Origin: a virus
Length of the DNA stretch: 18,786 bases
Direction: 5' to 3' (one strand)
UHGV virus genome: UHGV-1689787
Shown here: piece by piece, positions 1 to 10,454 of the stretch
Numbering within the stretch: position 1 is the stretch's first letter
How the letters are laid out: the number at the start of each line of letters is the position of its first letter
The notes under the pieces: generated by a model
Databases searched by the model: none
What the model saw: only the letters and a program-made list of their open reading frames with translations
Told to the model about the DNA's origin: nothing
Made by a program: the position numbers and the translations under genes

Positions 1-998
1 ACTGGGGAGCACTGCAACACCAGTACCTCGCCGAGCATGCTAAATCCGGTATTTCCCCCAAAGACTGGTGTGAAGCGCAGGGACTGAATTACACATCTGC
101 GCGGCGCTACATTAAAAAGCCAACTGCGCAAAAAACTGCGCAAAAAACTGCGCAGAAGAAAGAGCGCAATGCGCAGACTGAACAAGCCGCCGAAACTGCG
201 CACCATGCGCAACCACCAACCGATGCGCAGACCGATACACAGGAAAGTGCGCAACCCTTCAACCTGCGCAATTACGGCCTTAACGATATGCAGATCAGAT
301 TTGTCGAAGAGTATCTTCTAGATCTGAACAGGACCGCTGCATACAAGCGGGCTGGCTACAAAGGCGAAGGTAATACGGCTTACGTTAACGCCTCTCGATT
401 GCTAAGGAATGCTAAGGTCAACCAGGCAATCCGCGACGCGCTGGACGAACGCTCGCGAAGAGTGAAGGTAACGCAGGATGAAGTATTGAAATGGTGGTGG
501 GATATTGCGACGGCGGACGCCACGCAACTGACCGAATATCACCGCGGCTGTTGTCGTTACTGCTGGGGCTTCGGCCATCATTACCAGTGGCGTGACGCTG
601 TCGAGTTTCAGGAGGCCAAAGAAAGGATTGAGGGGAAGGAAGGGGCCAGGCAACCAGAGGATACCGGCGGCTATGGCTACGACGGAACGCTGGACCCTAA
701 CCCGGATTGCCCGCGCTGCAATGGCGTTGGGATTGGGCGCTCTGTAGTCCACGATACGCGCGATTTAGCTGGTGCTGAGCTCAGGCTATTCGCTGGGGTT
801 AAAGAGGGTAAATCTGGTCTGGAAGTGATCACCCGCAATCAGGATGAGGCCATGAAGATGGTCGCGCAGCACCTAGGCATGCTGAAAACCAAGACGGAGT
901 TAAGCGGGCCGAATGGTGAACCTATCCAGCACAGCCACTCTGTAAGTGCGGAGGACCTCACTGATGAGCAACTCGCCGCAATTATCGGCGGTAAGTAA
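1..998 (+). CDS. terS: Terminase small subunit, 5'-partial (frame opens at nt 3 and continues upstream of the window); C-terminal Terminase_2-like domain preceded by an HTH-like N-terminal segment and an Ala-Gln-rich linker
   Basis: Frame 0 has no stop from nt 3 to the TAA at 996-998, so the listed 288 start is an internal Met. Nt 3-287 translate to WGALQHQYLAEHAKSGISPKDWCEAQGLNYTSARRYIKKPTAQKTAQKTAQKK..., which resembles the N-termini of enterobacterial prophage small terminases as I recall them. Residues from 288 (QIRFVEEYLLDLNRTAAYKRAGY...VTQDEVLKWWWDIA) match the Terminase_2-type small-subunit signature. It sits immediately upstream of the large terminase. Confidence 0.8.
   Translation, partial: WGALQHQYLAEHAKSGISPKDWCEAQGLNYTSARRYIKKPTAQKTAQKTAQKKERNAQTEQAAETAHHAQPPTDAQTDTQESAQPFNLRNYGLNDMQIRFVEEYLLDLNRTAAYKRAGYKGEGNTAYVNASRLLRNAKVNQAIRDALDERSRRVKVTQDEVLKWWWDIATADATQLTEYHRGCCRYCWGFGHHYQWRDAVEFQEAKERIEGKEGARQPEDTGGYGYDGTLDPNPDCPRCNGVGIGRSVVHDTRDLAGAELRLFAGVKEGKSGLEVITRNQDEAMKMVAQHLGMLKTKTELSGPNGEPIQHSHSVSAEDLTDEQLAAIIGGK
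120..272. repeat. Cluster of 9 copies of the palindromic hexamer TGCGCA (plus 2 AGCGCA variants), including a 12-nt tandem repeat (ACTGCGCAAAAA, about 2.5 copies), inside the terS coding region
   Basis: TGCGCA starts at 125, 137, 149, 170, 197, 206, 224, 248 and 265 (9 in ~146 bp). Eight lie in one codon phase (NNT-GCG-CAR) and one in another (CTG-CGC-AAT). The preceding codon ends in T in all eight in-phase copies (ACT x4, AAT, CAT, GAT, AGT). Confidence 0.6.
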
Positions 999-2382
999 GC
1001 AGGCAGCAGCCAGGGAACTACTCAAGCGGCGCAATGCGCGGAACAGCCTCCACGACTTCATTCAGTACATAAACCCCGAATACATCACCAGCAAGTTCTC
1101 TCAGACGGTTTGCGACGCTCTGGATCAGTTCCTGCTGGATATGATGAATGGAGTGCGCCCGATACTGATTCTCGGTGCGCCGCCGCAGCATGGTAAATCG
1201 GATATCGTTTCGCGTTACCTGCCAGCGTATTTCTTCGGAAAATATCCTGAAATGCGCGTAGGTGCGCTGTCCTACTCTGCTGACCTTGCCGGGGATATGA
1301 ACGCCGACGTTCAGCGCATTATGTCCACGCCGGAATACCGCAACATATTCCCTGGCGCCTGGCTGGGCAATAAGCCGGCTGATGGTGTGGCCGTAAAGCG
1401 TAACACTGACGAATTCGGCATAGCCAACCATAAGGGGACGTATGTTTGTGCGGGGGTAGGCGGTCCGTTAACGGGTAAGAAAATCGATCTCGGTATCATT
1501 GATGACCCGATAAAAAACGCCAAAGAAGCACTTAGCCCGACAACTAAGAAATCTATCTGGAACTGGTACGTTTCCACGTTCAAAACGCGTCTGTCGAAAA
1601 ACAGCGGCGAAATCATCATGGCGACCCGCTGGGCGACAGATGACTTATCCGGGCGTGTAGTGGAAATCACGCCGCGCGCTAAGGTGCTGGCGTTCCCTGC
1701 AATCAACGAGCAGGGTGAAGCGCTGGTTCCAGAGTTGCACCCAAAAGAGAAACTGCTCGAAACCAAAACCATTCTCGGGGATTACTTCTGGTCTGCGATG
1801 TATCAGCAGTCACCAAAACAGGCTGGTGGCTCCATCTTCAAAGACGAATGGATCAAGTACTACCTCCCGAAAGACTTGCCGACCAACTTCGACATCGTCG
1901 TCCATAGCTGGGATATGACCTTCAAAGACAGCGAGGGGACCGACTACGTTGTCGGCCAGGTATGGGGCAAAAAGGGCGCAAACGCCTACCTACTTCACCA
2001 GGTGCGCGCGCGCATGAGCTTCACCGCAACGCTGAAAGCCGTTAAACGCATGGCCGACGAATACCCCAAAGGCTTACGTAAGCTGGTGGAGGACAAAGCC
2101 AACGGCCCGGCGGTTATTGATTCACTGAAAAGCACCGTTGCGGGGCTCGTTCCCGTTGAACCGGACGGCAGCAAAGTAGCCCGCGCGCATGCGATCACCG
2201 CTGTATGGGAAGCGGGTAACGTTTTCCTTCCCCATAAAGACATCGCTCCGTGGATCACCGAGACGGTTGAGGAAATTACCACGTTCCCTGTTGGCGCGAA
2301 CGATGACGTTGTCGATGCAATGACGCAGGGGTTACGCGATTTGTATCAGAGAAAAACACTCAGCCCACTGGACATCATGTAA
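964..2382 (+). CDS. terL: Terminase large subunit (ATPase and nuclease)
   Basis: 472 aa from ATG 964, which has a GGAGGA Shine-Dalgarno at 950-955; the GTG at 946 is an alternative start. P-loop-like motif ILILGAPPQHGKSD near the N-terminus and an acidic motif (DDVVDAMTQG) near the C-terminus, consistent with a terminase nuclease domain. Size and position after terS fit. Confidence 0.85.
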   Translation: MSNSPQLSAVSKQAAARELLKRRNARNSLHDFIQYINPEYITSKFSQTVCDALDQFLLDMMNGVRPILILGAPPQHGKSDIVSRYLPAYFFGKYPEMRVGALSYSADLAGDMNADVQRIMSTPEYRNIFPGAWLGNKPADGVAVKRNTDEFGIANHKGTYVCAGVGGPLTGKKIDLGIIDDPIKNAKEALSPTTKKSIWNWYVSTFKTRLSKNSGEIIMATRWATDDLSGRVVEITPRAKVLAFPAINEQGEALVPELHPKEKLLETKTILGDYFWSAMYQQSPKQAGGSIFKDEWIKYYLPKDLPTNFDIVVHSWDMTFKDSEGTDYVVGQVWGKKGANAYLLHQVRARMSFTATLKAVKRMADEYPKGLRKLVEDKANGPAVIDSLKSTVAGLVPVEPDGSKVARAHAITAVWEAGNVFLPHKDIAPWITETVEEITTFPVGANDDVVDAMTQGLRDLYQRKTLSPLDIM

Positions 2383-6179: not shown

Positions 6180-7148
6180 ATGCCTATGGAATCAGCAGAT
6201 TTCGAAGAAGTGCTGCAGGAAGCGCTAACTGAGCGTGATATGCAGTTGCAAGAAAAAGAACTTCCAGAGATCAACATCGGTGAAGCCCTCCCGGTTAAAG
6301 ACGGCCTGGATTTTTCTCTGGAATATGTGGATTTCGGCGTGTCAGAAGTGGTCGGGTCGGTTAAAGACGGCATCATTGGTAACAAAACCAACAGCCTGAA
6401 AACCATTGATAGTGAAATCGAATGGCTGAAAGCGCCTGTTGGCCAGTGGGCTAAAGCTGCAACCTGGACTCAGCAGGAACTGGAGAAGATCGCACGTCTG
6501 AACATCAACCTGCAGACCAAAAAGCAGGATGATCTGTATGCCAACGCCCTCGCTACCATTCAGTATGCCGGTTACGTCGGCCATCGCGGCGTTAAAGGTC
6601 AGGAAGGGTTGCTGACAGGGACGAAAGTACAGCTTATCACCGACACGTCAGGCAAAACCATTGCCGAAATGACCTCTGATGGGTTCGTGAAACTTGTGCT
6701 GGATGCTTATAACGCGGCATGGCGCAAATCCGGCTATCGTATCCAGCCAACGCATATCGCCATGGACGCCAGCGACTTTATGCTCGCCATGCAGAAATTC
6801 GACCCGAATCCGATTGTTGTGGGTACTGACCTGCTCCCGATTGCGGCGATGGATCGCATTATGGCGGCGCTGCGTAAGGCTTCTGGTAATGAGTCTTTCA
6901 ACATTACTTTCGTGAAAGTCCCGAGCAATTACGCGGTAGGTATCAAATCGGGTAAAACCCGCCTGGCAATCTACACCTACGAAGCCGATTACATCGAAAT
7001 GGAAGTGCATATGCCAGAACTGCTGGCAGCACGACAGCGTGATCTGCTGACCTATGAGTGTGGTTATCGCTCTGCCTTCGGTGGCGCGATGTGGAAACAG
7101 CCGCAGTCCGCGGTGTATGTGGATTACAAATCCTCTCCGGCAGAGTAA
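6180..7148 (+). CDS. Major capsid protein (DUF2184-like, by recall)
   Basis: 322 aa, with a GGAAGGAG Shine-Dalgarno 8 nt upstream of ATG 6180. Size and position (after scaffold, before neck genes) fit a major capsid protein. Confidence 0.65.
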   Translation: MPMESADFEEVLQEALTERDMQLQEKELPEINIGEALPVKDGLDFSLEYVDFGVSEVVGSVKDGIIGNKTNSLKTIDSEIEWLKAPVGQWAKAATWTQQELEKIARLNINLQTKKQDDLYANALATIQYAGYVGHRGVKGQEGLLTGTKVQLITDTSGKTIAEMTSDGFVKLVLDAYNAAWRKSGYRIQPTHIAMDASDFMLAMQKFDPNPIVVGTDLLPIAAMDRIMAALRKASGNESFNITFVKVPSNYAVGIKSGKTRLAIYTYEADYIEMEVHMPELLAARQRDLLTYECGYRSAFGGAMWKQPQSAVYVDYKSSPAE

Positions 7149-8951: not shown

Positions 8952-10454
8952 ATGTCGGCATCAATTAATAACGTCATTAATGTGACGCTTCTCGAAGAGG
9001 GACGGGCGGCGGCGCGAGATAACATCAACGTTTGCGCAATTCTGACCAGCCAGACGGGGGTATTGAGCACTGCTGAACGCTGGCGTTCATACAAAAGCGC
9101 ATCTGCTGTCGAACAGGACTGGGGGGCTTCTTCAGTCACCGCAGCTTTTGCGAATGTGTTTTTCGGGACCAGTCCTAACCCGGTATCCGCGGGCGGCACG
9201 CTGATCGTCGGTTACTGGAACGCTGCCGGGGAAACGCTGCCTGCGACCAGCGGTGTACTGCGTGGCGGTGAGATTTCTCAGGCAGTCGTACTGCCAGCGT
9301 TACGCGAGAAGTCTGACTGGTCATTCAGTATTGAGATTGACGGCACTAAGCACGATGTGACTGAAATTAATGGCATGACGGCGACGACACTGGCAGATGT
9401 CATCGCCCAAATCCAGGCGAAAATTACGCCAGATGTTGCATCGGTTGTTTTTGATGGCAGCCGTATAGCGATTACCAACAAATCGACAGGGACTAACTCT
9501 GTTGTTGGTTATCCGACAGTGCTGGATGGTGGCTCTTTTATTGGCGATCTGCTGGCGGTTGCGGAGGGTTCCGGCGCTTCGCTGGTAAACGGTAGCGCAT
9601 CAACTGAGATTTCACCGGAAACACAACTGGAATCTCTCAGCAAACTCAAAGCGCAGGTCAACGTAAAAGGCGCGGCCTTCATCGACAAAATTCTCGATGC
9701 GCAGGTGCCGTTGATCGCTTCATGGGCTAAAGCGAACGCGGTAATCGTGTATGAGACATTTACCGGTTCGGCAGCTCTGGAAGTTGATCCGACTAACCCG
9801 GCATGGGCGGTAACACTCGCCAGCCAGAGTAATTTCCGCATGCTCTACAGCAAAACAGGCAACCGGAAATTTGGTGTTAGCTATATGGCGCGCACGCATA
9901 CCGTTAATTTCAACGGAGAACGCACTGCAATCACTTTGCACCTCAAAACGATGAACGTGCCGGCCGAAAGTTATGAGCAGACGGAGATCGACAAAGCGAA
10001 GCGTGTAGGTCTCGACATCTACACCACGATTAAAGACGTTCCCTGCGTGCTGTCGAGCGGTGCTAATGATTTTGTCGACAACGTCTATAACCTGATGGCC
10101 TACGTTGACGCAGTGCAGACGGATTCCTTCAACCTCCTTAAAACTACGCCGACTAAAGTCCCACAAACCTATTATGGCGTTGATCAGTTAGAGGACTGTG
10201 TAGAGAAAACCACGCATGGGTTTGTGAAGGCTGGGGTGTTCAATCCGGGTACCTGGACGCTGCCTGACTTCTTCGGGGATCGGGATATGTTTCTGCGAAA
10301 TATCGAGCAAAACGGGTATTACGTGCTGGCCGGTGACCTGAAAGACCAGTCAACCGCAGACAGGCAGGAACGCAAATCCCCGGTTGTTCAGGTAGCAGTG
10401 AAGAATGCTGGTGCTGTTCACAGTGCCGATATCATCATCAATTTCAATAAATAA
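8952..10454 (+). CDS. Tail sheath protein (DUF3383 / XkdK-like, by recall)
   Basis: 500-aa ORF with a GAGGA Shine-Dalgarno 8 nt upstream. Followed directly by a ~140-aa tube-like protein, a chaperone and a tape measure gene, the canonical contractile-tail order. Confidence 0.65.
   Translation: MSASINNVINVTLLEEGRAAARDNINVCAILTSQTGVLSTAERWRSYKSASAVEQDWGASSVTAAFANVFFGTSPNPVSAGGTLIVGYWNAAGETLPATSGVLRGGEISQAVVLPALREKSDWSFSIEIDGTKHDVTEINGMTATTLADVIAQIQAKITPDVASVVFDGSRIAITNKSTGTNSVVGYPTVLDGGSFIGDLLAVAEGSGASLVNGSASTEISPETQLESLSKLKAQVNVKGAAFIDKILDAQVPLIASWAKANAVIVYETFTGSAALEVDPTNPAWAVTLASQSNFRMLYSKTGNRKFGVSYMARTHTVNFNGERTAITLHLKTMNVPAESYEQTEIDKAKRVGLDIYTTIKDVPCVLSSGANDFVDNVYNLMAYVDAVQTDSFNLLKTTPTKVPQTYYGVDQLEDCVEKTTHGFVKAGVFNPGTWTLPDFFGDRDMFLRNIEQNGYYVLAGDLKDQSTADRQERKSPVVQVAVKNAGAVHSADIIINFNK

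Follow-up and report, generated by a model that had tools for sequence, protein, structure and literature searches.

The small terminase gene (terS) that opens an 18,786-nucleotide stretch of UHGV virus genome UHGV-1689787 (hereafter the window, meaning that stretch at its full length) raises the question of why one palindromic hexamer, TGCGCA, should crowd a short part of its coding sequence, directly behind the portion for an N-terminal helix-turn-helix (HTH) module. An earlier note, made from the letters of the window alone, had proposed a pac site organized as in phage P1. We compared the locus with its relatives to answer this question, and the analysis indicates that the array is probably the recognition part of a phage pac site, that is to say a P1-type cassette with a new hexamer specificity.

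TGCGCA occurs 14 times across the window, where nine copies cluster at 125-270 (start positions in Table 1) and the remaining five are spread over the other 18.6 kb. Dinucleotide shuffles predict 8.24 copies per window, or 0.064 per 146 bp, such that the nine observed correspond to a Poisson P(>=9) of 4.7e-17. In 100 first-order Markov simulations, the most crowded 150 bp for any hexamer contained 3-5 copies, whereas the densest hexamer cluster of the real window is TGCGCA itself, with nine; the claim that the cluster lies far above chance is thus borne out. The copy numbers first given for 120-272 hold for the nine TGCGCA but not for two AGCGCA variants, only one of which (163-168) lies inside, the other falling at 74-79 in the HTH-coding part. 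A further one-mismatch variant, TGCGCG, is found at 98-103. The array starts 6 nt past the HTH module and proceeds in steps of at most 27 bp, with a core spacing of 9/12-12-14-7 that is kept among relatives, where 12, 14, 7 and 9 bp are the dominant spacings. The degenerate copy at position 163 is an exact TGCGCA in relatives, coded GTG, CTG, TTG or ATG followed by CGC A. The perfect 12-bp tandem repeat at the start of the array accounts for three TGCGCA copies, and the other six lie outside that duplication. The window carries one extra 12-bp AACTGCGCAAAA unit compared with most close relatives, and loci L007, L050 and L146 of the comparison set have a different additional copy; copy number therefore seems to vary by slippage.

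Inspection of the HTH module reveals that the analogy with P1 is closer than originally proposed, since the small terminase (TerS) has an N-terminal HTH with homology to the one in PacA of P1 and D6, and the P1 hexamers occupy the equivalent place in pacA. Using hhalign, the module profile (A4) matched D6 PacA residues 1-74 with a probability of 97.9% (E 4.5e-13, 43 colinear columns from residue 1) and P1 PacA residues 1-64 with a probability of 92.1% (E 6.1e-7), while BLASTP against D6 gave 31% identity (E 1e-10). D6 PacA bridges P1 PacA and the window module. The PacA N-terminus yields sub-threshold Pfam matches to HTH_23 and HTH_28, and BLASTP of window TerS against PacA detects no similarity past the HTH motif. 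The P1 pac site (Sternberg & Coulby 1987; Skorupski et al. 1994; summarised in PMC10028697) spans 161 bp within pacA and comprises seven TGATCA/G hexamers with Dam sites, an IHF site and a cleavage site, and is Dam-regulated (PMC10028697). Synonymous recoding of its hexamers reduces packaging of the phage genome (PMC10028697). In the P1 record, hexamers lie at pacA nt 194-228 and 324-347, with one more at 375, and the cleavage region (nt 276-285) falls between the blocks. The D6 pacA gene (locus L166, 892-1400) has GATC-containing repeats, ATGATCC / GGATCAT, at nt 314-450, further downstream than in P1.

The same module heads not only PacA of P1 and D6 but also the TerS of Shiga toxin (Stx) phages. 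In the VT2-Sakai family it is found at 49% identity, with the helix A-R-T-R-I-K-M, and is directly followed by the exactly spaced YGATCAT repeats listed in Table 1, which we consider a candidate P1-like, Dam-containing pac array of these Stx phages.

Loci with the N-terminal module were gathered from viral contigs (80 loci) and a one-genome-per-species collection (70 loci), plus named phages. The comparison set comprises 148 non-redundant loci, for which motifs were counted in the 210 nt after the HTH. Two classes emerge, distinguished by residue 39. Loci with Arg39 (A-R-R-Y-I-K) average 5.37 TGCGCA and 0.06 TGCGAA, while those with Lys39 average 0.14 TGCGCA and 5.57 TGCGAA/TTCGCA, with a minimum of 4. 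Arg39 occurs with TGCGCA in 119/119 loci and Lys39 with TGCGAA in 21/21, and among 40 HTH columns residue 39, which sits in predicted helix 3, alone has complete mutual information with motif class. The Arg class includes Aeromonas phage phiARM81mr, Vibrio phage douglas 12A4 and prophages of Brenneria, Providencia and Xenorhabdus; the Lys class includes Klebsiella phage RothC, the Yersinia vB_YenM phages and prophages of Gallibacterium and Aggregatibacter. In the Lys39 class, the TGCGAAT arrays, which often take the form of a 12-bp palindrome (TGCGAATTCGCA), show a 183-fold enrichment relative to the remainder of their loci.

Lys39 might in principle be a mere by-product of a TGCGAA placed over codons 38-39; this was rejected, as only 5/21 K-type genes have such a copy. 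Moreover, the codons for Lys39 and Ala38 vary synonymously, which argues that K39 is not a by-product of the DNA motif. Across residues 6-38, Lys-type proteins are no closer to each other than to Arg-type proteins. Single-linkage BLAST clustering of TerS bodies merged everything, and motif-based body typing was used instead. The resulting split is R95/K2 for the Terminase_2+Cys4 type, R2/K13 for the RothC/Stx-like type and R12/K1 for phrog_32222. That is to say, motif class tracks residue 39 and not the TerS body, with both classes present on each of the three body types. One genome, Pantoea sp. BAV 3049, has both an Arg39/TGCGCA terS and a Lys39/TGCGAA terS (L098, L108), which fits co-resident prophages having packaging signals that do not cross-react.

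The linkage was also approached from the DNA side. When 2.9 M viral contigs were scanned, blind to protein, for the core layout TGCGCA-N6-TGCGCA-N8-TGCGCA-N-TGCGCA, at least 120 loci were returned. Among the 120 matches listed, 118 fit the module pattern 8-35 nt upstream, one has the module with Tyr35Cys and one has a module cut by an insertion. Given this linkage and the covariation above, the N-terminal HTH very likely reads the hexamers of the array. Decayed copies of the locus also occur (L223 at ~6730-6950, L105, L125, L128 and L147), and several prophage terS genes have frameshifts or stops. In L223 an inserted element cuts the HTH module with the array still present; 5-7 hexamers are left in L125 and L128, and only 1-2 in L105 and L147.

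The linkage and covariation data would also fit if TerS bound the array through its N-terminal HTH for autoregulation of terS and terL, by transcriptional roadblock or translational control, with the true pac located elsewhere. The array lies in the 5' third of the first gene of the operon, and in phage SPP1 the binding of the small terminase G1P at pacL overlaps its own promoters. In contrast, pac cleavage in P1 has been mapped to the region of the homologous array, and the window array sits within the open reading frame (ORF), well downstream of promoter or ribosome-binding site. We regard this explanation as unlikely, and an autoregulatory role and a pac role can coexist.

Still less probable is that something other than TerS targets the hexamers, be it a regulator of host or phage origin, a methyltransferase or a restriction system. 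TGCGCA is an FspI site and contains the HhaI site GCGC, and coupling to methylation is present in the wider family, where GATC is found in the arrays of P1, D6 and Stx phages and Dam regulates P1 pac. This explanation contrasts with the perfect covariation between the motif and a residue of the adjacent HTH, and with the exclusive occurrence of the array beside that HTH. The TGCGAA of the K class is non-palindromic, and the hosts of the arrays range from Vibrio and Aeromonas to Enterobacterales, for which we know of no common methylase.

We next consider whether the selected entity is the DNA word or the peptide it encodes. In frame 3 the array peptide reads TAQKTAQKTAQKKERNAQ..TAHHAQ..DAQ..SAQ..NLRN. 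The description of the copies as an x-Ala-Gln repeat is accurate for most of them, with one in-phase copy encoding Ala-His instead. As reported in the earlier note, the preceding codon ends in T in all eight in-phase copies (ACT four times, AAT, CAT, GAT and AGT), and the copy at 265-270 lies in another codon phase (CTG CGC AAT). Homologues extend this pattern, as the hexamer appears in all three phases: nnT GCG CAn (x-Ala-Gln/His), nTG CGC Ann and TGC GCA (Cys-Ala). Counts for 671 hexamers in 125 non-redundant Arg-type loci are 508 x-A-Q/H, 132 [L/M/V]-R-x and 31 C-A. In the nTG CGC Ann phase the first residue swaps among Val, Leu and Met with the TG unchanged. When x-Ala-[Gln/His] is encoded, it is written nnT GCG CAn in 93% of linker cases, compared with 29% for control ORFs from these loci, and T occupies the preceding wobble position in 96% versus 46%. 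Linker Thr is coded by ACT in 221/234 cases, compared with 8/27 in controls, and linker Ser is split between AGT (60 times) and TCT (59), which belong to different codon families yet share a final T. These linker codon counts lack phylogenetic independence, yet the difference is a large one.

When 27 close relatives, which have 5-9 copies each, are aligned, the hexamers form the columns conserved at >=90%, with the intervening sequence varying. Among these window-type relatives, the copies at 248 and 265 fall in such columns, while 197-229 show gain and loss. Across 69 relatives, TGCGCA averages 5.67 copies per locus at terS nt 126-300, 54-fold above the rest of the same loci. A hexamer kept in three codon phases with different peptides, together with a T-biased wobble position, argues that the DNA word and not the peptide is selected, and we are nearly certain that the array hexamers are under DNA-level selection. 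The suggestion that the hexamer itself is selected is therefore upheld: homologues keep TGCGCA while peptide and codon phase change, and a comparison of whether they retain the AQ peptide with freely varying codons came out in favor of DNA-level constraint.

It follows that selection for a flexible (T/S)AQK linker, with the hexamer merely a consequence of biased codon choice and recent slippage in 12-bp units, merits very little credence. The perfect tandem repeat does cover three copies, the linker is predicted to be disordered, and Ala is commonly coded by GCG, as it is in 54% of control A-[QH]. These points contrast with the three codon phases and their differing peptides, with the excess of wobble T over controls, and with [V/L/M]-R, which retains TG despite the amino-acid change. 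The K class adds that TGCGAA is coded as x-Ala-Asn in enteric genes and as Asn-Cys-Glu in the Pasteurellaceae Gallibacterium and Aggregatibacter, where all copies have one orientation. Action of self-complementary hexamers through secondary structure of mRNA or single-stranded DNA is scarcely credible either, as the fold of RNA 110-285 (-52.9 kcal/mol, z = -4.6 vs shuffles) is a trivial effect of repeated palindromes, the unidirectional Pasteurellaceae K-type arrays are equally clustered without being self-complementary, and Rfam gives no credible match.

Several points weigh against the reading of the array as a P1-type pac site. The IHF consensus WATCARNNNNTTR was not found in the window, and the window has no obvious hexamer-free cleavage gap like that of P1. 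A palindromic 6-mer would be an unusual target for a single HTH. Codon 39 lies only ~20 nt from the array, so that linkage of two old haplotypes, as opposed to repeated co-adaptation, could partly underlie the perfect R/K association. P1 has Arg at the equivalent position yet reads TGATCA, which indicates that residue 39 alone does not determine specificity. Psychrosphaera sp. (L154, terS from ~2486) has an intact Arg39-type module followed by no TGCGCA or TGCGAA, with AAGTTAA present three times instead; it is the sole intact gene of the set without any TGCGCA, and L071 keeps two copies. Literature searches yielded no virion-end, footprint or genetic data on any phage of the TGCGCA class and no relevant paper joining TGCGCA and terminase; a paper on Yersinia temperate phages contains no packaging data, and searches on Stx phage packaging and the PacA HTH offered nothing useful. 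In the library searched, which was incomplete, we found no paper in which other small terminases are tied to TGCGCA/TGCGAA arrays or to the N-terminal domain of PacA. The record of vB_EcoP_phi345, which splits terS at its ends, was considered as a mapped terminus and rejected, since it is merely set to start at terL.

Taken with the evidence above, a P1-type pac site remains the reading we favor, and it may operate as follows. TerS would consist of a PacA-homologous N-terminal HTH tethered by a disordered linker of ~45 residues to a ring-forming Terminase_2 body, and the DNA coding for that linker, with its 5-9 hexamers, would be read by the HTH, where Arg39 in the recognition helix may help to specify C at hexamer position 5. 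Several tethered HTHs per TerS oligomer could bind several hexamers cooperatively on the concatemer. The bound array would then mark the spot near which the large terminase (TerL) cuts and a headful packaging series starts. We infer binding and cleavage at the array from homology with P1, and headful packaging from the Terminase_6 TerL and its relatives, which by tblastn include T1-like coliphages, cluster-B-type mycobacteriophages and Microbacterium phages. These TerL-related groups (T1-like phages, actinophages) are circularly permuted, headful packagers. The DUF1073-type portal and the Mu-F-like protein are further, indirect pointers to permuted, terminally redundant virion DNA.

Because reader and target are coded in ~300 contiguous bp, they could move jointly as a cassette between unrelated TerS bodies. 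We put at about even the prospect that the PacA-like HTH and the hexamer array of its own linker form a portable, self-contained specificity cassette on at least three TerS bodies, in which R39->K39 together with TGCGCA->TGCGAA in every hexamer gives mutually orthogonal packaging specificities.

Table 1. Features of the terS locus in the window, followed by the sister arrays in related loci (locus coordinates as given).
Feature	Position	Strand	Basis or remarks
terS (small terminase)	1..998	+	Frame 3 open from position 3, stop 996-998; Pfam Terminase_2; homologue annotation
Extra N-terminal three-helix HTH module, PacA-like, full-length residues 6-44	3..119	+	
Predicted recognition helix Y35-I42; Arg39 codon CGG at 102-104	90..113	+	Helix 3 in AlphaFold2 (AF2) models; residue-39 covariation
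Coding region of disordered low-complexity linker with array	120..251	+	AF2 predicted local distance difference test (pLDDT) <50, fragment residues 40-83; strong A>T skew
12-bp tandem repeat AACTGCGCAAAA, 2.8 units, perfect	122..154	+	TRF
Proximal hexamer block, conserved 12-14-7 core layout	125..175	.	TGCGCA 125, 137, 149, 170 and degenerate AGCGCA 163
Distal hexamers	197..270	.	TGCGCA 197, 206, 224, 248, 265
Canonical Terminase_2 body with own SF6/SPP1 G1P-like HTH	279..899	+	Pfam; phmmer to SF6 G1P 3zqp
terL (large terminase, Terminase_6N/6C), overlaps terS 3' end	946..2382	+	Pfam
Four YGATCAT(G/A)A repeats, exact 12-bp spacing, encoding IDHEIDHKTDHEIDH, directly after HTH	L160 2139-2186 (phage VT2-Sakai terS)		Same in L159
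Lys39-class TGCGAAT arrays	L002 (Klebsiella phage RothC) ~585-650		Also L066-L083 and L161 (Yersinia vB_YenM_30.14)

Position 1 of the window lies 13 nt inside terS, as the RefSeq/GenBank homologues annotated as small terminase begin with MAKPDWG 13 nt upstream. The Pfam Terminase_2 family (PF03592) matches aa 93-299 (E 3e-27, 96.4 bits vs a gathering cutoff of 26.1), and no Pfam family matches the first ~45 TerS residues. Colinear with the Pfam match is a weak phmmer alignment (E 0.09-0.13) of SF6 G1P (3zqp, 4zc3) to query residues 90-169; since it covers this range, the first ~45 residues constitute an additional domain. The G1P-type HTH stands at the start of the Terminase_2 domain, where AF2 places helices at 95-135 with pLDDT 74-90. 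Foldseek found no significant match for the entire TerS model, which is of low confidence, only the model of the N-terminal domain being usable. An in-frame ATG at 288 (ORF 288-998, 236 aa), just past the array, falls ~10 nt inside the Terminase_2 match and might in principle yield a TerS isoform lacking the PacA-like HTH and linker, with no obvious Shine-Dalgarno sequence seen. Within the Terminase_2 body (window 549-719, TerS fragment residues 183-239) there is a Cys-rich insertion, CCRYCWGFGHHYQW ... CPRCNG, in which C183, C184, C187, C236 and C239 are invariant across 41 homologues. It resembles a zinc ribbon placed within a small terminase, in a region where AF2 confidence is low.

Downstream of terS, Pfam identifies the Terminase_6 TerL, a DUF1073-type portal and a Mu-F-like protein. 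The terL ORF from GTG 946 overlaps the terS end by 53 nt, and RefSeq homologues are annotated with a 35-nt overlap; TerL has no sequence relative in the PDB. Further along the window (~9988-10130), TCGACA/TGTCGA occurs five times in 150 bp of a putative sheath gene, which is at the upper edge of chance (10% of simulations reach five).

The family to which this locus belongs is large: it counts 2430 TerS homologues and more than 549 loci in IMG/VR, occurs as prophages in genomes that represent 68 species, and takes in 252 phage records, among them Stx-converting phages. Few pac sites are known and they are usually unpredictable from sequence; that of ES18, for example, is still unknown (PMC11260489). 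The array offers a pac prediction that can be read from sequence for a large family of phages and prophages, and if the cassette interpretation is true, pac sites would be readable directly across the whole family. It also ties these phages in evolution to the pac paradigm of P1, and provides a candidate protein-DNA specificity switch, R39/K39 with C/A at hexamer position 5. Possible uses include forecasting the starting points of lateral or generalised transduction, looking for pseudo-pac clusters in hosts, and building packaging-orthogonal phagemid systems, for which recoded P1 pac is a precedent (PMC10028697).

Comparison with known packaging systems helps to position the locus. The lambda cosB site likewise has repeated short elements, the R elements, read by the N-terminal HTH of gpNu1. 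Lambda is, however, a cos system in which the 16-bp R elements lie outside coding sequence and depend on IHF, and no test run revealed homology between gpNu1 and the window module. With SPP1 and SF6 G1P, the window TerS shares a Terminase_2 body and a G1P-type HTH. The small terminase gene of SPP1 overlaps the pac site with its 5' part, and many HTHs, arranged on an oligomeric ring, are offered to multiple sites. G1P differs in having neither the extra N-terminal HTH nor the linker. Recognition by G1P is described as relying on multiple sequence-independent contacts (PMC4737164), which contrasts with the exact hexamer conserved in the window class. Phage P22 also has its pac within the small terminase gene (gene 3) and packages by headful (PMC11260489); its site is a single asymmetric ~22-bp element, not an array, and its TerS belongs to an unrelated fold family. 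The sister arrays of the K class and of VT2-Sakai-family Stx phages share the N-terminal module, with a motif array right after it and often 12-bp spacing, and differ in motif, being TGCGAA(T) with Lys39 in the former and YGATCAT in the latter.

The closest counterpart is P1 pac, where a hexamer array within ~160 bp is likewise embedded in coding sequence, inside the 5' third of the gene for the recognition subunit and just downstream of the DNA that codes for the homologous N-terminal HTH. The two differ in the word itself, TGCGCA versus TGATCA/G, and as none of the nine window copies contains GATC, Dam control is not expected. The window does not have a clear HEX4-gap-HEX3 layout, although TerS relatives of 323 aa have 5 + 3 copies ~160 bp apart, and its module is joined to a Terminase_2 TerS in place of PacA and partnered with a Terminase_6 TerL in place of PacB. 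What appears new here is a probable hexamer-repeat pac cassette of the P1 type that lacks Dam or IHF features, is joined to a TerS of the Terminase_2 kind and has a candidate specificity switch of one residue. Judged by sequence and layout, the window array is the positional and architectural counterpart of the experimentally defined P1 pac, written in a different word and paired with a homologous reader domain.

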